Source: Patescibacteria group bacterium (GTDB lineage Bacteria > Patescibacteriota > Minisyncoccia > 2-02-FULL-40-12 > GWA2-44-9). From it: DNA of 64,000 nt. The stretch is taken from assembly GCA_038064515.1 (NCBI GenBank), contig JBBTSY010000007.1:18249-82248 (forward strand). Reading direction: 5' to 3'. Below are positions 48,664 through 63,272 of the stretch, one piece after another; within the stretch, counting starts at the first letter, position 1; each line of letters opens with the position of its first letter. Position numbers and translations under genes: made by a program. The notes below the pieces were generated by a model. That model was not told where the DNA came from. It searched no databases and was given only the letters and a program-made list of their open reading frames with translations.

Positions 48664-49248
48664 CTACATGACCTCATACAGGAAGCGCAAGGAATTTAAG
48701 CGGAGGCTGAAAGTGTATTCATAGATAGTATCGAGTGGAGAGGGAAAGGTGGCCCCGCCATAACGGGGTCCCGCTGAGGCGGTGGCCACTGGGATTACCG
48801 GGAGTTGAGAGGCGTAACCAAGCACATTTAAGAAATCGGCTTGTTTTTCCCGAAAAAATGGCATCAGCGCTGATGCGTCCGCGGCATCCAGCTCAATTAA
48901 AAGCCTATATAAAAAGTTCCAGAGCTTTTCATCTTTCTGATTATCATAAGCGACGCGGTCGATAACTTCAAAGAAAAAATAGGCCACTGCCTGATGCGCC
49001 AATGATTTTCGAATGTGGCTGAAAGTATTCTCACTTTGAGCGCCGGTAATGATCGGCGTGGCGCGGCCATTTATTAAATCGAAATCGACAAGATTTAAAA
49101 CATCCAGATGCATCCCCTGAATCGAACTTTCTTTCAGAGAACTTTTAGCGATCGCAGTCAGTTTGCCCCACTCCTGGCTGTAGCAAGTAATAAGCTGGTC
49201 ATATTCCTTCGTCATCTGCTTTTTGATGATAATCGCTTTCGTTCTCAT
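48664..49248 (-). CDS. recO: DNA repair protein RecO-like (short form)
   Basis: 194 aa. The N-terminal OB-fold pattern (MRTKAIIIKK...EYDQLITCYSQEWGKLTAIAKSS) is consistent with RecO. The gene lies upstream of ileS. Confidence is moderate. Confidence 0.55.
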   Translation of the reverse strand: MRTKAIIIKKQMTKEYDQLITCYSQEWGKLTAIAKSSLKESSIQGMHLDVLNLVDFDLINGRATPIITGAQSENTFSHIRKSLAHQAVAYFFFEVIDRVAYDNQKDEKLWNFLYRLLIELDAADASALMPFFREKQADFLNVLGYASQLPVIPVATASAGPRYGGATFPSPLDTIYEYTFSLRLNSLRFLYEVM

Positions 49249-52200
49249 TTTTTAATGCCGATCCAGATTTTTTTACCGGGCGCGAGCTTGATTTCTTCTT
49301 CTACATCATATGCACGATCTGCTTTAGGCTGCCGTAATAATTCGGAAAGCACGGTATCCGTTTTGATTGCGACGGACCATTCGGTGATCGCATTTGAAAG
49401 AGCGGCATCTTCACTGTGCCAGTATGCCACGACTTCCTCATCAAAACGATAGCCGGCATCCTTGCGCATATCCTGGATCTGGCGCATCATCTCCCGCGCA
49501 TATCCTTCCGCGCGCAATTCGTCGGAGATTGCGAGATCAAAGCTCAACTTGGCTTCGGCAGGCAAGCCTGCTTTTTGATAGCGGATGTCTTTTACATTTA
49601 ACTCATCCTTAATCAATGCCTCGAGACCCGGATCAAGCGGATCGCTAGGAATAATCACCGCTTGGAGCGGCTGGCGCACTTTAAGCTGTTCGTTCTTGCG
49701 CAGGGCCAGCCCCTGTGTCACGAATTCCTGAATTCGGATCATCGCAGATTCCAATTCGCTGTTCACCATTTTCACATCGCCAATCGGCCAGCGTTGGAGG
49801 TGGACACTTTCTGTACCCTCGCTTTGTCCGCCAATACGCGCATAGATATCCTCGGCGGTATAGGGCGCAAACGGAGCGATCATTTTGGTCACCTCAAACA
49901 ACAAGTATCGCAACACACCGATCGCTTCTGGTCGGTTACGGGAACGGCGGAGCCACCATTTAGAGAGATCATCAATCACGAATTTCTCGATCATACGGGC
50001 GGCGGTTGTCGGATCGTACGCATCCATCCGTTTAGTAGCTTCTAAAATAGTTCGATTAAGCCGCGAAAGCATCCACTGATCGAGCACCGTCGGTTCCTGT
50101 TCCTGGCCCCGCCTTGGCGGGAGTTTTTCATAGAGTTCATAAAAGCGGACGCAGTTTTCAAGGGTAGTAAAAAAACCTTTGAGTCGTTCTTGCGCGTCTT
50201 TAAGAGTCACCACCGTGGATTCCCCTGGCATGTTGGCGGTATAGAAGTACCACCGCGTAGCATCAACGCCGACGGCATCCATGAATTCATCGGGAGCGAT
50301 GACGTTGCCTTTAGATTTGGACATTTTCTTTCCATGCTCATCGAGAGTATGACCAAGCGATATTACATTCCTGTAGGGAGCGCCCTTATTCAGGAGTGTC
50401 GAAATCGCCAATAAGGTATAGAACCAGCCGCGAGTTTGATCTACCGCTTCCACGATAAAGTCTGCCGGGAATTGCCTCTCGAATATTTCCTTATTTTCAA
50501 ACGGCCAGTGCCATTGGGCGTACGGCATACAGCCGGAATCAAACCAGACATCGATGAGATCGGGTACTTTATACATCGGTCCGTCGCATTTCGAGCACTT
50601 TAAAACAATTTCATCCACGTATGGCCGATGGAGATCAACGTCACCCTGGTCATTGTAAGGATAGTTTGGCAGGGTCGCTTTCATGTACGTCCCCTGCTTG
50701 AGATAGATTTCTGATTTTTTCGCGAGAGTGTCCGCGTCGTCTCGGTTCATCATTGCGCTGGCAAGAATCCAGAGCGGGTCACCGTGACTGATAATGAGGA
50801 TATTTTTGCCTTCGTATTTTTTATCCAGTTCCACTACAACCGCCATCATGCGGGCTTTAACATCGCGCCAACTGTCACCATCTCCGCGCCTGGCATCCAT
50901 TGCCACGATAGTGCCTAGTTGCTCGACACATTGAGCATGTGTTTTTCCCTCACACGCCAATCCGTGCTTTATTTCGCCTAGCCGCTCATCAGTTTCTACA
51001 GGAATACCCAGAACTTCAGAGATAATCTTTGCCGTACCTTGGGTACGCTTGAAAGGTGACACAATGATAATGCCGATTTTTTCTTTTTTTAATTTATCAG
51101 CCATATCCGCTATCTGCTTCCGCCCTTCGTCGTTAAGTTCATAAATATCATATTCACCGGTATACGAATTGATAATCATATTCTTCTCGACGCTTCCGCG
51201 ATCGGTAAGCCCATGACGCGCCAAAATAAATTCATTTGGCTTCTTAAAGCGATTTTTTTTCAAATCATCGAGACTCCCCGCAACGCGATATGTTTCACAA
51301 TCGGCATTGGCGCATTGCCATACCGGCAGGGGCGTCCCCCAGTATCGTTCGCGAGAGAATGCCCAATCTTTGCCTTCTTTGATCCACTGTCCAAAGCGGC
51401 CCTCCTTTAAATGGCTCGGAATCCAGTTAATCTGATCGTTGTTTTTTAAAAGCTGCTTATTCACCGCTGACATTTTGATAAACCAGGATGTCTTGGCATA
51501 ATAGATCAGCGCAGTGTCACAGCGCCAACAGAATGGATAATCGTGCTCATACTCCTCCTCTTTGAAGAGCGTGCCGGTGGCTTTCAGTTTCGCAAGAATT
51601 ACTTCCGTAGTCTTGGCGGTTTTTACATACATGCCGTCCAGATCAGAGCTTACGCCGATAAATTTGCCCTGCAGATCTACCGTGTGCACTTTTGGTAAAC
51701 CAAGCTCCGTGCCCAGAGCATAATCATCTTCACCGTACATCACCGCGGTATGCACGACGCCGGTACCGTCCGTAGTAGAAACAAACGGCGCGGCATAAAT
51801 ATGGTAGGACTTCTCTGATTTCAGTTGCGATACATCAAAGAGAGGTTCGTATTCAAGTCCCACAAGATCATTGCCGTCTATAAAACCCAATTCTGCCCCA
51901 TCAAATTGCGGGAAAACTTTTAACAACAAATCTTTCGCTAAAATATAAGTTTCTTCGCTATCTTTTGGTTTTATCTTTACGTACCTGATATCCTTCCCTA
52001 CGGCCAAGGCGACATTTCCCGGAAGCGTCCAAGGAGTGGTGGTCCACGCAAGTATAAAGGTGTTCTCCGAAAACTTGTCATTCTTGGTGAGTTTAAATTT
52101 TAGGTAAACGGAATTCTCCTTGACCAGCTTGTACCCTTGGGCCACTTCATGCGATGAAAGTCCGGTCCCGCAACGCGTGCAAAAAGGCACCACGCGATGC

Positions 52201-52709
52201 GCTTGATACAAGAGATCTTTATCCCAGATGGTTTTTATAATATTCCAAACGGATTCAATATATGACGTCTCATACGTTACATACGGATCGTGGAGATCAA
52301 GCCAGAATCCCATGCGTTTGGTCATCTGTTCCCACAGGCCCTTATATTTTTTAGCATTCTCTTTCGCCTTCTGGTTGAATTTTGCTATGCCGTATTCTTC
52401 GATCTGCTTCTTATTTTTAAAACCAAGTTCTTTTTCGATCTCGATTTCTATCGGCAAGCCATGCGTATCCCAACCCGCCCTTCGCAAAACGCTATAGCCG
52501 CGCATCGTTTTGTAGCGCCCATAGAGATCTTTAAATACACGTGTCAAGAAGTGTCCGATATGCGGTAGTCCATTAGCCGTCGGGGGGCCTTCAAAGAAAA
52601 CAAAATGTTCCTCTTTGCTTCGAAGTTCCAGGCTTTTTTCAAAAATCTGCTCCGATTCCCAAAAATGCCGGATTCGCTCTTCAGTTTTCTTAAAATCAAA
52701 AACAGCCAT
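49245..52709 (-). CDS. ileS: Isoleucyl-tRNA synthetase carrying an approximately 190-aa inserted histidine-phosphatase (phosphoglycerate-mutase-like) domain
   Basis: 1154 aa. HIGH appears as PHIGHFLT and KMSKS as KMSKSKGN. CP1 editing-domain motifs are present. An insertion at residues approximately 490-680 (coordinates approximately 50670-51245) contains ILARHGLTDRG...IIIVSPFKRTQGTA...LIISHGDPL, matching the RHG/SHG catalytic motifs of the histidine phosphatase superfamily. Confidence 0.95.
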   Translation of the reverse strand: MAVFDFKKTEERIRHFWESEQIFEKSLELRSKEEHFVFFEGPPTANGLPHIGHFLTRVFKDLYGRYKTMRGYSVLRRAGWDTHGLPIEIEIEKELGFKNKKQIEEYGIAKFNQKAKENAKKYKGLWEQMTKRMGFWLDLHDPYVTYETSYIESVWNIIKTIWDKDLLYQAHRVVPFCTRCGTGLSSHEVAQGYKLVKENSVYLKFKLTKNDKFSENTFILAWTTTPWTLPGNVALAVGKDIRYVKIKPKDSEETYILAKDLLLKVFPQFDGAELGFIDGNDLVGLEYEPLFDVSQLKSEKSYHIYAAPFVSTTDGTGVVHTAVMYGEDDYALGTELGLPKVHTVDLQGKFIGVSSDLDGMYVKTAKTTEVILAKLKATGTLFKEEEYEHDYPFCWRCDTALIYYAKTSWFIKMSAVNKQLLKNNDQINWIPSHLKEGRFGQWIKEGKDWAFSRERYWGTPLPVWQCANADCETYRVAGSLDDLKKNRFKKPNEFILARHGLTDRGSVEKNMIINSYTGEYDIYELNDEGRKQIADMADKLKKEKIGIIIVSPFKRTQGTAKIISEVLGIPVETDERLGEIKHGLACEGKTHAQCVEQLGTIVAMDARRGDGDSWRDVKARMMAVVVELDKKYEGKNILIISHGDPLWILASAMMNRDDADTLAKKSEIYLKQGTYMKATLPNYPYNDQGDVDLHRPYVDEIVLKCSKCDGPMYKVPDLIDVWFDSGCMPYAQWHWPFENKEIFERQFPADFIVEAVDQTRGWFYTLLAISTLLNKGAPYRNVISLGHTLDEHGKKMSKSKGNVIAPDEFMDAVGVDATRWYFYTANMPGESTVVTLKDAQERLKGFFTTLENCVRFYELYEKLPPRRGQEQEPTVLDQWMLSRLNRTILEATKRMDAYDPTTAARMIEKFVIDDLSKWWLRRSRNRPEAIGVLRYLLFEVTKMIAPFAPYTAEDIYARIGGQSEGTESVHLQRWPIGDVKMVNSELESAMIRIQEFVTQGLALRKNEQLKVRQPLQAVIIPSDPLDPGLEALIKDELNVKDIRYQKAGLPAEAKLSFDLAISDELRAEGYAREMMRQIQDMRKDAGYRFDEEVVAYWHSEDAALSNAITEWSVAIKTDTVLSELLRQPKADRAYDVEEEIKLAPGKKIWIGIKK

Positions 52710-53286: not shown

Positions 53287-55226
53287 ATGTTTACAAAACT
53301 AGATAAAAACGAGAAGGAGGTGTGGGATTGGGGTCTTGGGAAAGATTTTTCACCCAAGCTTTTAACTAATAAATTATTTGACTCAAGACGATCCTCTATA
53401 GAAAGGTTTATCGGGTCTTTCTTGAGAGAAAACATTGGGGAAATAATTAATCATTGTACTTGGTACGCTCGCGACGACTGGATAACGAAAAATCAAAGCT
53501 TTTCTAAACAATATTCACATAAATGGAAAAAAGAAGAGACTAAAGAAATAGTAGAGATATCTTTAGGTAATGATAAATTACTCATTTTGCCCGTATGCGG
53601 GTTTCCTCTTGAGAGATTTTACTTAACAACCCTGCCCTTATTGAGAGAACAAGACAAAATATCTGAATTGTCGAATCTATCAGAAATTTTCTCTCTTTTT
53701 TATAATAAACAAGGAAGTGAACAAGGAGATTGGGAATCCATGAGAGGGGACTTATTAAATAGTAACGCGAACCTCTTTCTTGCTTTTCTTTTAAGGGAAG
53801 AATATATGGGTAGGCTAAGAGAAAACTTGTCTCAGAAAATTTATTCAGAATTCCATAATAAAGATGAAATGTTGGTGTTCTTTGAGCAATGGTGCGTAAA
53901 TGGTCATTTTCTACATCCAACTCCAAAATCAAAAACAGGTATTCTGCTTAAAGACCTCCTGAAGCTACTACCAGAAGCACATGTAACGTATAAACTTTAT
54001 CTTATTGCATTAAAAAAAGATAAGGCACATTTCTTGTCGATCAGCGGTAGTTTCGATTCATTTTTTGTAAGATTATCGAATTCGCTTCATGAAAAAGTGA
54101 GGAAATATATTAAAAATATTAAAATATTAATGCTAATTTTGAAGATTATTACTTCATCCCAATCCACCCATGGCAATACGAGAATTTTCTTAAAAAAAGA
54201 TTAGCAACAGAACTTGATAGTAATGATTATATCTTTTTGGAAGGAATCGGCGTGAAGGTACAACCACTTATCGCTTTTCGAACTGTATATGTTCCGGAGA
54301 TGAGTGTTTATTTTAAGCTTCCGATAGATGTTCAAATAACAAGTGTTAAAAGAACACTCTCTTCGAAGCCGTGTCATAACGGTATCGCTCTATCTAAAGT
54401 TTTTGATATTCTCAAGAGAAAAGAATGCCTCCCTAATTCATTTGAAATACAATTAGAAATTGCTAGTGTCAGATTGAAAGAAGACTATCCTTCACATAAG
54501 AATTTAAGTTTTGTTACCAGGGAAGGCAGTATCGCAAATCTAACCGAAGAAGATTTAATTCTCCCAGCATCTGCTCTTTTTGAGAAATCACCGAACCTTC
54601 GTCGAGGGAAAATTCTTGAAGAATTGATTTCTGCTTATTCTTTGACTACTGTACAAAAAGCCGGAGGTAAAAAAGTAGTTTTAGAATTTTTTAATAATTA
54701 CATCAAAATTTTATTGCCTCCAGCACTAGATTTATTAACTAAATATGGTATTGGAATAGAAGCACACCTACAAAATTCTATAGTTGTTTTTAGGAACGGA
54801 GTCCCCCATAGATTGATTTATAGAGATTTGGATGCAGTAAATATTTGTACCAAGAGATTTAGTAAGCATTCATTCCTAAGAAATGAATTCTATCCTAACT
54901 CGTGGACAGTATCTGAAGACGCGCAAGCCGCGCAAGACAAGGTGATGCATTCGCTAATACATTCACATATCGCAGAGATGATTAATCAAATAAACTTGAT
55001 TTATGATTTGAATTTTGAGATATTATGGCGATCAGTTGCAGGGCTAATCCGCAACCATTTGGATAACCTCTCCAAAGATTCTTTATTCAGTAATGAGGCA
55101 AAAAAAGATATTGAATATTTTTTTTGTGAATTCACTTATATAAAGTCGCTTTTTCGAATGAAGTTACTCGGAAAAACTAATGAGTATATCCATATTAAAA
55201 CCAAAAATCCTTTATATTTAATATAA
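53287..55226 (+). pseudogene. IucA/IucC-family (NRPS-independent siderophore-type) amide synthetase, split by a frameshift near 54105-54130
   Basis: ORF 53287..54204 is the N-terminal part. The next reading frame opens at 54123 and reads ...YYFIPIHPWQYENFLKK..., the hallmark IucA/IucC HPWQ motif. It continues into ORF 54237..55226, which has GIGIEAHLQNSIVVFRNGVPHRLIYRDLDAVNI, the IucA/IucC EAH.QN...R..YRD core. The frame switch lies in an AATATTAAAAATATTAAAATATTAA repeat. Confidence 0.7.
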
Positions 55227-55229
55227 AAT

Positions 55230-55817
55230 ATGACCATCGTTGCTTCAACAATACTGATAACAGAGTACGGCAGATTTAATGTCAGCTACCATAAAACAAA
55301 AAATGGTGAAGGTCTGTCAATTAAAAAGGGTAAGTTAAACACAACCAATCCCCTCTTAAGGATACAGTCCTCATGTATTTTTAGTGAATCTTTTCACTCC
55401 ACAACTTGTGACTGTTCACTTCAGCTTCAAGGGTCATTAAAAATCATCAATGAATTTGGAAACGGTGCTTTGGTCTATCTTTTTGATGAAGGACGCGGTG
55501 CCGGTCTGCTTACAAAGATAAAAGCAATGGAGATCGAAAGACAGAATGAAATTGATACTGTCGAAGCATTTAAAAAACTGGGATTACCAGCAGACTTGAG
55601 AAATTATAAAATTGCCCTGGATATCTTGGAAGATATTGAAATAAACAAAGAACTCAAATTGATCACGAATAATCCAAACAAAAAGAAAAGTCTAGAAGAG
55701 AATGGATATAAAGTTACTGAAATCGTTAGATTGAATTTAGAACTAAATGATTCGGTAAGAAAATATCTAAAAATGAAAAAAGAAAAGCTCGGGCATGAAT
55801 ATATAGATTTAGAATAG
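55230..55817 (+). CDS. GTP cyclohydrolase II (RibA)-like protein with apparent Tyr105-to-Met substitution
   Basis: 195 aa. The zinc-ligand Cys pattern SSC...TTCDCS parallels RibA C54/C65/C67. GALVYLFDEGRGAGLL, DTVEAF, ADLRNY (Arg128 equivalent) and LITNNPNKK all align to RibA. The position equivalent to Tyr105 (KIKAMEIERQ) is Met. Confidence 0.75.
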   Translation: MTIVASTILITEYGRFNVSYHKTKNGEGLSIKKGKLNTTNPLLRIQSSCIFSESFHSTTCDCSLQLQGSLKIINEFGNGALVYLFDEGRGAGLLTKIKAMEIERQNEIDTVEAFKKLGLPADLRNYKIALDILEDIEINKELKLITNNPNKKKSLEENGYKVTEIVRLNLELNDSVRKYLKMKKEKLGHEYIDLE

Positions 55818-61361: not shown

Positions 61362-61385
61362 GAATAATAAATTAATTTACATAAC

Positions 61386-61826
61386 ATGTCTGATTTCACT
61401 ACTAATCCACGCGCACACTTCGACTATGAAATCCTCGAGACCATCGAGGCAGGTTTGGCATTGCGTGGTTACGAGGTAAAGTCCATCAAATCCGGGAAGG
61501 TATCCCTCAAGGGCGCTTACGTTAAAATCATCAACGGCAAACCGGTTCTTCTGGGCGCTATTATTTCACCCTATCAAGCGGGTAATGTTCCTCCCGACTA
61601 TAATCCCCAAGCAACACGCGAACTGCTCTTGAGCAAGCGGGAGGTTTCCGCCCTCGTCAGCCTCTCAAAATCCCAAGGTCTAACTCTTGTACCGTTAAAG
61701 CTGTATCCCAAGGGTAATTTAGTGAAGCTTCTTATCGGCGTAGCCCGAGGTAAGAAAAAACACGACAAGCGCGAAGCGATTAAGAAAAAAGATATCGCCC
61801 GCTCCCAACAGCGCGGAACAGAATAA
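61386..61826 (+). CDS. smpB: SsrA-binding protein
   Basis: 146 aa. FDYEILETIEAGLALRGYEVKSIKSGKVSLKGAYV... and a basic C-terminal tail. The tmRNA gene lies approximately 1 kb downstream. Confidence 0.9.
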   Translation: MSDFTTNPRAHFDYEILETIEAGLALRGYEVKSIKSGKVSLKGAYVKIINGKPVLLGAIISPYQAGNVPPDYNPQATRELLLSKREVSALVSLSKSQGLTLVPLKLYPKGNLVKLLIGVARGKKKHDKREAIKKKDIARSQQRGTE

Positions 61827-62825: not shown

Positions 62826-63179
62826 GGGGATGATCGGTATCGACGTTGTTATTCCATCCCTCTGATGCCGTGCGTGAATGATCGTTACCACGTAAATCTT
62901 CGGTCAAACATAATAACTGGCAACACTTCCAGTAATTACGCTTTCGCCTAACCTAGTTAGGTAAGCCATTCCTCCCAGATGTTCGATATGGGATTAAGGA
63001 GTGTCATTATCGAGCTTTAGCAGGACGGATGTTCTCCCCTCGTCTGCTGAAAATCTGGAGAACTAGTGCGAGATTATTTTGTCGGTTTCCTACTCTCGCG
63101 TGAAACACCAAATCGGCTATCACGGTAGTACATCATTGGTTTGCAACAGCGGACGCGAGTTCGATTCTCGCCATCTCCA
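62826..63179 (+). ncRNA. ssrA: tmRNA (SsrA), standard one-piece form; CCA not encoded
   Basis: The 5' end GGGGATGATCGGTATCGACG parallels the E. coli 5' end GGGGCUGAUUCUGGAUUCGACG. The 3' end GGACGCGAGTTCGATTCTCGCCATCTCCA parallels E. coli GGACGCGGGUUCAACUCCCGCCAGCUCCA. The acceptor GGGGATG/CATCTCC has a G3:U70 pair. The candidate tag ORF GGC AAC ACT TCC AGT AAT TAC GCT TTC GCC TAA (62919-62951) gives (A)GNTSSNYAFA with a second in-frame TAG. Confidence 0.8.
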
Positions 63180-63272
63180 CATCGTTAGTATTTTCAGTTG
63201 CAAGCTCCTCAAAAAGCCTCGGGGCATGCAGCACTTCGCTAGAAGTAAAACAGTGATATAATTTAGTAACAT

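Follow-up and report, generated by a model that had tools for sequence, protein, structure and literature searches.

What does a histidine phosphatase do inside an isoleucyl-tRNA synthetase (IleRS)? The question is raised by a 64,000-nucleotide stretch of DNA from a Patescibacteria group bacterium (assembly GCA_038064515.1, contig JBBTSY010000007.1, positions 18,249 to 82,248 of the forward strand; the whole stretch is hereafter called the window), in which a preliminary description made from the sequence alone had noted such a domain within ileS. We regard it as close to certain that the ileS product, an otherwise complete type-2 IleRS, carries between the Cys pairs of its Zn knuckle, on linkers of a few residues, a complete branch-1 histidine phosphatase, and that this domain is the counterpart of a free-standing gene for a protein of ~190 amino acids (aa) lying between argS and an insert-less ileS in sister Patescibacteria, a slot that is empty where the domain is nested. 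We further propose, tentatively, that the phosphatase works on behalf of the synthetase or its tRNA. The relevant features are as follows, numbered along the window and along the window protein.

49245..52709, minus strand: ileS, encoding the type-2 IleRS with nested phosphatase domain; a single open reading frame (ORF) of 1154 aa, assigned by TIGR00392, Pfam and the AlphaFold2 (AF2) model.
50646..51251 (approximate), minus strand: nested histidine phosphatase domain with short linkers, aa 487-688, delimited by PF00300, AF2 and colinear free-standing homologues.
51210..51218, minus strand: RHG motif, aa 498-500 (R498, H499 as presumed nucleophile, G500); R498 and H499 invariant in 120/120 homologues.
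51042..51059, minus strand: SPFKRT motif, aa 551-556 (S551; R555 as second phosphate-binding Arg); S551 and R555 invariant.
50973..50975, minus strand: E579, the presumed general acid; invariant in 120/120.
50781..50789, minus strand: SHG motif, aa 641-643 (H642 as second catalytic His), the start of the signature SHGDPLW; H642 invariant.
51252..52709, minus strand: IleRS N-terminal part, aa 1-486, comprising the first Rossmann half, the editing domain CP1 (connective peptide 1; ~aa 192-392), CP2 and the first Zn-knuckle half; aligns to 8c8u 12-477.
52551..52565, minus strand: HIGH signature PHIGH, aa 49-53; H53 invariant in 80 homologues.
52026..52046, minus strand: threonine-rich editing-site motif WTTTPWT, aa 222-228; W222, T223-T225, W227 and T228 invariant (alignment A1).
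51297..51314, minus strand: first Zn-knuckle Cys pair, C466-x4-C471; aligns with the CxxC of 1ile and 8c8u, at least 90% conserved.
50586..50597, minus strand: second Zn-knuckle Cys pair, C705-x2-C708; at least 90% conserved.
50313..50327, minus strand: KMSKS signature, aa 795-799; K795, S797 and K798 invariant.
49245..50645, minus strand: IleRS C-terminal part, aa 689-1154, comprising the second Rossmann half, stem-contact fold, anticodon-binding domain and type-2 C-terminal domain; aligns to 8c8u 484-852.

The nested domain was identified by a match to PF00300 (His_Phos_1) of 116.5 bits (E 1.5e-33; gathering score 21.7) covering profile positions 2-163 of 194, a level at which the resemblance of the motifs is not due to chance. 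The preliminary description had read RHG, SPFKRT and SHG as the catalytic motifs of a histidine phosphatase at 50670-51245 and had asked whether the segment folds independently; these motifs are indeed present, the coordinates are essentially right, and the block modelled alone by AF2 folded as an independent domain, with a predicted local distance difference test (pLDDT) score of 91.2 and a predicted template modelling (pTM) score of 0.89. Branch-1 histidine phosphatases share a catalytic set composed of the Arg-His of RHG, a second Arg, an acidic proton donor and a second His. Within the block, R498, H499, S551, R555, E579, R620 and H642 are invariant among the 120 best IleRS homologues, and RHG comes right after strand E493-498 in the AF2 model. 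Across a wider set of 286 domain instances, the R and H of RHG are present in 274 (11 of the remaining 12 being truncated), the acid position is E or D in 283, and the full R-H-R-E/D-H set is whole in 270 (12 of the remaining 16 being truncated).

Foldseek searches with the block model returned the phosphatases GpgP (Rv2419c), PspA, PhoE, CobC, TIGAR and a riboflavin-pathway histidine phosphatase (probability 1.00; template modelling (TM) score ~0.72-0.77; 18-27% identity), and the domain, at ~190 aa, ends flush with short free-standing phosphatases. PhoE (1H2E), GpgP (4PZ9), Hydrogenobacter thermophilus PspA (4IJ5), CobC (6E4B) and the riboflavin-pathway enzyme HFP (9MMH) have the same fold, a length of ~190-210 aa and the same R-H…R…E…H set; the window domain is set apart by its signature SHGDPLW and by its association with a class Ia synthetase, within it or encoded next to it, instead of a solitary place in a metabolic operon. 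The closest earlier example of a branch-1 histidine phosphatase fused to a nucleic-acid enzyme is the actinobacterial RNase H/acid phosphatase (PRK07238; Mycobacterium tuberculosis Rv2228c type), but that fusion is terminal and to a different partner. By its sequence relationships, then, the nested domain is a branch-1 histidine phosphatase of its own subfamily, marked by SHGDPLW and carrying no curated name. In the cap region, just after E579, lies a Cys pair, C586/C594 (hG..CEGK....C; window 50928-50954), which is kept in 60-90% of the 120 closest homologues but in neither the free-standing nor the more distant copies; it could form a disulfide, bind a metal or have a redox function, at a spot where model confidence is lower.

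Turning to the host enzyme, the window protein is an otherwise complete type-2 IleRS with HIGH, KMSKS, editing motifs and C-terminal domains intact. It scored 846.7 bits against the TIGR00392 ileS model (cut-off 621.4), in two stretches on either side of the insert, and Pfam assigned tRNA-synt_1 (PF00133), Anticodon_1 (877-1019) and DUF5915 (1055-1129). In HMMER searches of the PDB, the closest solved relative was Priestia megaterium IleRS2 (8c8u; E 3.6e-242), and the editing-domain chain 1wk8 matched residues 192-392. The CP1 editing motifs WTTTPWT (222-228) and GTGVVHTAVMYGEDDY (315-330) are kept in homologues, across which HIGH, KMSKS, the editing motifs WTTTPWT and GTGVVH…D and the Zn-knuckle cysteines are conserved. 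A full-length AF2 model based on an 80-sequence alignment (pLDDT 86.9, pTM 0.80) superposes in its synthetase part on 8c8v (TMt 0.84) and 1ile (TMt 0.91) by Foldseek. No second ileS is present in the 64-kb window.

The match to 8c8u falls into two pieces (query 8-486 to 12-477; query 689-1047 to 484-852), so that ~200 residues of the window protein stand where the reference has ~7. When residues 487-688 were deleted in silico, the remainder became colinear with 8c8u 394-575 and with Thermus thermophilus 1ile 396-569, and C466/C471 and C705/C708 landed on the Zn-knuckle CxxC pairs of both structures. By this alignment, the phosphatase interrupts the Zn-knuckle loop that joins one Cys pair to the other, ~30 residues ahead of the WFDSG strand. 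The preliminary description had held that other IleRS possess just a short linker here, which agrees with the alignments to the type-2 enzymes 8c8u and 1ile; it had also placed the insert between the end of CP1 and the second half of the catalytic domain, of which the latter boundary stands, but the domain begins ~95 residues past the end of CP1, after CP2 and inside the Zn knuckle. Type-2 IleRS of known structure (8C8U/8C8V, 1ILE) thus resemble the window protein in fold, HIGH, KMSKS, editing motifs, Zn-knuckle Cys pairs and C-terminal domains, and differ from it in having ~7-13 residues in place of the 202-residue phosphatase domain. The connective peptides of IleRS have been named CP core, ED (CP1), CP2 and CP3 (PMC11685878), and by order along the sequence the insertion site would correspond to the CP3 position. 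In the full-length AF2 model the block and both linkers, the latter a few residues each, are mostly at pLDDT >90, and the last 20 residues of the phosphatase reach high confidence in this context only, not in the domain-alone model; together these features suggest that the phosphatase is docked in a fixed manner on IleRS.

The same 1154-aa protein, identical throughout, is encoded on six contigs from independent assemblies, with ENA ERZ1292619 (a 139-kb contig from the 0.1 µm fraction of Hainich groundwater well H41) and three Logan runs among the sources; NCBI names it 'class I tRNA ligase family protein [Patescibacteria group bacterium]'. Orthologues share the insertion, a point that the preliminary description had raised: PF00300 is found in 120/120 of the best IleRS matches, which are 54-75% identical to the window protein and, where named, are assigned to Patescibacteria, Yanofskybacteria, Paceibacterota and Taylorbacteria, with the RHG and SHG residues invariant. 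Identity within the block is ~36-66% in this close set, ~35-50% from lineage to lineage and ~30-40% between clusters drawn at 50% identity. A chimera or misassembly is ruled out by the identical protein in independent assemblies and by the numerous orthologues. An intein or other mobile insert was rejected on the absence of Hint, intein or endonuclease Pfam matches and on the junctions, N486/R487 (…KKN/RFKK…) and Q688/G689 (…NDQ/GDVD…), which lack Cys/Ser/Thr and His-Asn. A recent horizontal insertion also found no support, since composition gives no signal (at a GC content of 0.43-0.49 the block stays within the values seen elsewhere in ileS) and the insert is common to homologues just 54% identical. 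As judged from these comparisons, the catalytic residues are clearly under selection and the arrangement is widespread, occurring in hundreds of related bacteria.

An exhaustive search with the block alone against 1.84 billion cluster representatives returned 281 clusters at E<=1e-10. Among the 152 sequences classified from it, ~95 were nested in IleRS (many of them fragments) and the rest were free-standing ~190-aa proteins, with which the nested domain aligns from first strand to last and shares the signature SHGDPLW. A word-indexed protein search with the 202-aa insert as sole query gave 2 matches despite the hundreds of nested copies, and such short-domain negatives are unreliable. For three free-standing proteins (P0001, P0127 and P0130; P and L numbers denote our proteins and loci) contigs were fetched, and all three genes lie directly upstream of ileS; the neighbouring ileS in L005 is long enough to judge and has no insertion, and the other two contigs stop within the first 85 and 183 ileS codons.

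A species-level scan of one genome per species (GTDB) was then made with the pattern [SG]HGDPLWLL and the narrower alignment A3, the mixed alignment A2 being too diverse. It yielded 163 confirmed stretches, all from Patescibacteria-type metagenome-assembled genomes, the named lineages being Yanofsky-, Nealson-, Wolfe-, Harrison-, Kaiser-, Wildermuth-, Uhr- and Sungbacteria, Spechtbacterales and Minisyncoccales. The breakdown by locus type covers the 80 loci kept from these 163. The domain is nested in ileS at 53 of the 80, comprising 49 with the insertion always at the same place, 3 apparent splits and 1 cut by a contig end; a free-standing gene abuts or overlaps the start of an insert-less ileS at 21, and a free-standing gene is found without ileS in the available DNA at 6. 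Both forms together were found at 0 of the 80 loci. The apparent splits (L024, L046, L054), candidates for 'split IleRS' intermediates at the insertion boundary, were rejected: runs of N account for two of them and a frameshift of one base for the third.

The gene order argS-[phosphatase]-ileS-recO-DUF11 is kept across most of the 80 related loci, with argS followed directly by ileS in nested-type genomes; in the window, the ileS stop and recO start overlap (ATGA, 49245-49248) and the DUF11 protein has 583 aa. In a neighbour-joining tree of the IleRS core, most nested forms fall into one clade and the adjacent-type enzymes branch outside it. Tentatively, this tree, for which neighbour-joining was the only method, implies ~3 state changes and 1-3 insertion events at this site. 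In the simplest history, the upstream neighbour gene would have moved into the part of ileS that encodes the Zn-knuckle loop, with loss of the copy at its first location. At one locus, a tandem pair of free-standing histidine phosphatase ORFs was seen at a contig end (L083:5980-7153).

The same module occurs at four IleRS loops across lineages, given here in the numbering of the window protein.

Site 1, ~486/689: the window's own site.
Site 1b, ~710/712: just after the second Cys pair.
Site 3, ~739/746: between 'MPYAxxHxPF' and 'FPADFI'.
Site 2, ~869/874: the loop before the anticodon-binding domain.

Proteins that show these placements include P0245 (L088:4001-8140), P0175, P0150 (L089:1932-6191), P0141, P0181, P0188, P0227 and P0226, with up to three copies each; some combine two or three sites. 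Neither P0245 nor P0175 has a copy at site 1; the ORFs of P0245 and P0150 are complete, with both ends inside the contig. Every complete copy in the multi-copy proteins retains the catalytic residues, and paired copies are old paralogues, orthologous position by position between proteins. Separate acquisition of the extra copies from other phosphatase families is not supported, as their best matches are other synthetase-nested copies. Two unusual proteins were noted: P0156 (1161 aa), in which the IleRS N-terminal part runs to the equivalent of residue ~414 of the window protein and is followed by at least four His_Phos_1 domains to the protein end, reflecting either contig-end truncation or a fifth insertion site; and P0188 (sites 1 and 1b), in which all four Zn-knuckle cysteines have been lost (…IWRSSPDATD… and …ITWSSSEE…; aa ~505-520 and ~740-750).

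A search with P0245 opened a second clade (Gracilibacteria, Peregrinibacteria, Peribacteria), in which PF00300 is present in 101/120 IleRS, mostly as a single copy at site 2. These same 120 proteins host other nested domains as well: GNAT in ~17, P-loop AAA_18/AAA_33 in 5, DUF559 in 5, and a serine hydrolase and a HAD phosphatase in 1 each, counts that were made by hand from the Pfam annotation. For six of the proteins, Pfam coordinates locate the additional domains after the N-terminal catalytic part and ahead of the anticodon domain. In the HAD protein, the HAD phosphatase takes the place of the histidine phosphatase in one of the same loops, and GNAT domains often stand alongside His_Phos_1 in IleRS of the Gracilibacteria/Peregrinibacteria type. 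Examples with other nested domains are P0273, P0289, P0300, P0328, P0334, P0361 and P0313, with lengths of up to ~1850 aa. The nearest precedent for the architecture, at the level of annotation, is NCBIfam NF040702 (ileS_w_GNAT), an IleRS with an internal accessory enzyme domain; the window protein differs in that its guest is a phosphatase, in a different loop and with no GNAT (302.6 bits against a cut-off of 1999, and no acetyltransferase Pfam match).

The module is also found in valyl-tRNA synthetase (ValRS). A 1337-aa ValRS of GCA_964532505.1 (contig CAZHIF010000005.1; L094:17319-21332) contains a catalytically intact His_Phos_1 domain at aa 511-663, directly after 'WWGHQIPVWY' and hence at the homologue of site 1, plus ~240 aa that match no assigned domain. 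The enzyme is a genuine ValRS (NF004349, 878.7 bits against 704), the IleRS encoded on the same contig (P0340) is without insertion, and the same ValRS arrangement was recovered from a Logan run (L092). Beside two insert-less IleRS genes of the second clade, we observed in one case a YbaK-like tRNA_edit gene starting 1 nucleotide after ileS (L090:8109-8585) and in the other an adjoining Ser_hydrolase gene (L093:8332-8841), the latter of the same family as the domain nested in the IleRS of P0313. This last pairing hints that capture of neighbouring genes into synthetases may be a general process.

Given the intact catalytic set, the nested domain is probably an active phosphomonoesterase. By analogy with the chemistry of the family, H499 would attack the phosphate to form a phospho-histidine intermediate, R498, R555 and H642 would hold the phosphoryl group, and E579 would protonate the leaving group. 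For the further proposal, that the phosphatase is not a mere passenger and has a putative role in serving the synthetase or its tRNA, we estimate a probability of about 0.45. In such a role it would strip phosphate from something met by IleRS (or its paralogue ValRS) or its tRNA: by first preference a phosphate on the tRNA end that blocks charging, by second a nucleotide or pyrophosphate-type by-product, and by third a phosphate carried by the synthetase, whether regulatory or put there by a toxin. The functions floated in the preliminary description, hydrolysis of a nucleotide or phosphorylated intermediate, resistance or regulation, are likewise conjectural. Physical coupling is favoured by the four nesting loops, by the intactness of every complete copy in multi-copy proteins, by the insertion at the homologous site of a ValRS, by the unrelated HAD phosphatase in one of these loops, and by the short, confidently modelled linkers.

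Enzymes that clear 2',3'-cyclic or 3'-phosphate ends from tRNA exist, among them the T4 and bacterial Pnkp kinase-phosphatases and the HD-domain phosphatase of the bacterial CCA-adding enzyme. They offer an analogy of function only; their phosphatase folds (HAD, calcineurin-like, HD) differ from that of the window domain. The Pfam families AAA_33/AAA_18, domains of which are nested in sister-lineage IleRS, cover Pnk-type kinase domains. In its most ambitious form, which we consider unlikely, the coupling proposal would have the nested phosphatases act in repair or defence as an integral part of the class Ia synthetases of the Candidate Phyla Radiation (CPR), removing a blocking phosphate so that charging proceeds, and forming with the nested P-loop kinase-like, GNAT and hydrolase domains a platform for the healing and quality control of tRNA and aminoacyl-tRNA. 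The targets could then be tRNAIle or tRNAVal on which nucleases or toxins have left a 3'-phosphate, 2',3'-cyclic phosphate or pyrophosphate, or a synthetase phosphorylated by a toxin kinase.

Several observations weigh against coupling and would be accounted for by an autonomous passenger: a housekeeping small-molecule phosphatase, encoded beside ileS, that was captured into a permissive surface loop and works independently of aminoacylation. Retention would then reflect a constructive-neutral ratchet, in which excision would break an essential gene, and intragenic duplications would later have seeded the other loops; since a nested domain is hard to lose or to split off, long retention is no proof of coupling. 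The insertion points are variable surface loops, sites 3 and 2 being the two lowest-pLDDT loops of the window model, and by strand topology the sites would lie at the N-terminal ends of beta4 and beta5, at the sheet edge opposite the active site. This topology was oriented by W722, Q758 and W762, which we take to correspond to the isoleucine-pocket residues of T. thermophilus IleRS, reportedly described in a 1998 structure paper on that enzyme. GNAT, P-loop, alpha/beta hydrolase and DUF559 domains, along with HAD, nest in the same loops, so that permissive loops fit as well as function does, and neighbour capture may extend to the Ser_hydrolase of L093 with its nested counterpart in P0313. The closest characterised relatives, by Foldseek neighbours, act on small metabolites.

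The genomic context points the same way. Within the conserved block around ileS, argS and recO are as constant as the phosphatase gene, so the adjacency of the latter to ileS, set inside deeply conserved synteny, may by itself be inherited gene order. Two loci retain the free-standing gene (L068:5914-6564 and L072:5917-6561), flanked by argS (in L072 with an additional GNAT gene) and recO-DUF11, while ileS is missing from the slot. As the usual slot is empty, ileS must sit elsewhere in those genomes, and the enzyme can evidently work without an adjoining ileS.

What tells against a passenger is, first, that four separate sites are occupied, with every copy of the multi-copy forms catalytically intact. 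The same domain lies at the homologous ValRS site in a genome whose IleRS is insert-less, a case for which capture of an ileS neighbour cannot account. A non-homologous HAD phosphatase occupies one of the same loops, and the linkers are short and confidently modelled. Gene fusions in general predict a functional link more often than not, although less reliably for promiscuous domains. The passenger is the main alternative, possible but somewhat less likely than coupling.

A self-protection or resistance module, an alternative raised in the preliminary description, is very unlikely. Under this alternative, the nested enzyme would inactivate an IleRS-directed inhibitor or reverse a toxin modification, with the nested GNAT, kinase-like and hydrolase domains as parallel detoxifiers. 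IleRS is a classical antibiotic target, the GNAT enzymes MccE and RimL detoxify aminoacyl-nucleotide inhibitors, and Hip-type kinases phosphorylate and inactivate class I synthetases. Consistent with these precedents, the GNAT, P-loop kinase-like and serine-hydrolase families nested in IleRS of related clades are typical drug-modifying families, and NF040702 is a dedicated NCBIfam model for a GNAT-bearing IleRS. However, we know of no IleRS inhibitor with a phosphomonoester, and type-2 IleRS is already intrinsically mupirocin-tolerant. The mupirocin-resistance models MupA (NF000257) and MupB (NF000258) gave 787.8 and 756.5 bits, far under their cut-off of 1900, no toxin kinase or biosynthetic cluster was seen near ileS, and vertical conservation this wide would be unusual for a resistance determinant. 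None of the findings of this analysis is specific to a resistance role.

There is also a slim chance that the nested domain is the cell's cofactor-dependent phosphoglycerate mutase (dPGM), or a defined enzyme of the CobC or PspA type, fused to IleRS. The best partial NCBIfam matches lie in this direction: 75 bits for the RNase H/acid phosphatase model, 74.9 for the archaeal short dPGM (NF038349), 69.1 for CobC (TIGR03162) and 61 for PspA (NF045917), and extra copies in other lineages are nearer CobC (81-117 bits). All of these values fall far below the curated cut-offs of 326, 225, 162.9 and 350, respectively, as do the scores against TIGR01258 (24.9 against 81.7) and PRK03482 (44.9 against 261) for dPGM and against TIGR00249 (22 against 74.5) for SixA. 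The 'PGM-like' label of the preliminary description therefore holds at the level of the superfamily and not for any of the equivalogs. The nearest folds are small phosphatases: the block superposes with a root-mean-square deviation of 2.5-3.5 Å over ~195 columns on phosphatase-type members, against 5-6.6 Å on dPGMs, identity to the former is 18-27%, and the subfamily has its own signature.

Fainter still is the prospect of a catalytically dead structural module, acting as a tRNA- or phosphate-binding pad or as a dimerisation domain. Members of the histidine phosphatase fold often dimerise and the domain is rigidly attached in the AF2 model, but several hundred divergent copies show no variation in the nucleophile His, the general acid or either Arg, and a binding-only role would have no need of H499 and E579. 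An artefact or selfish insert (chimera, sequencing-error fusion, intein or mobile element), suggested by the unusual length only, has next to no standing beside an identical ORF in independent assemblies, hundreds of orthologues, a continuous frame and normal composition.

In a full-text literature search, we found no description of a phosphatase within IleRS, and the main text of a 2026 preprint on the domain architectures of 96,219 IleRS contains no phosphatase, CPR or Patescibacteria. The phosphatase-in-IleRS arrangement is thus undescribed in the literature searched, while the proteins themselves are known from public databases under generic annotation.

Elsewhere in the window, two adjacent ORFs (305 and 329 aa; 53287-55817) match the IucA/IucC siderophore-synthetase family, one of them also FhuF, and are adjoined by a GTP cyclohydrolase II-like ORF, a content unexpected for a Patescibacterium. 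The genes for SmpB and tmRNA (tag peptide GNTSSNYAFA), at 61371-61823 and 62826-63180, lie ~1 kb apart and are ordinary.

Few enzymes have been studied as closely as the aminoacyl-tRNA synthetases, whose accessory domains (editing domains, tRNA-binding domains, eukaryotic appendages) have each revealed new biology. Here the guest is itself an enzyme, apparently active and different in chemical class from the essential synthetase whose catalytic core holds it. The arrangement is conserved over large parts of Patescibacteria, and the domain reaches several copies, occupies four or more loops and is also found in ValRS. Many of these IleRS are named by NCBI only as 'class I tRNA ligase family protein' or 'hypothetical protein', so that IleRS may be under-called in metabolic reconstructions of the CPR, and the phosphatase may be miscounted as phosphoglycerate mutase in annotation. 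If coupling is false, the family would present an unusually clear natural case of neighbour-gene capture and domain nesting as an evolutionary ratchet, together with a map, useful for engineering, of the IleRS and ValRS loops that tolerate insertions of 200-900 residues. If coupling is true, the nested phosphatase would represent a new layer of translation control or repair, in organisms with minimal genomes.

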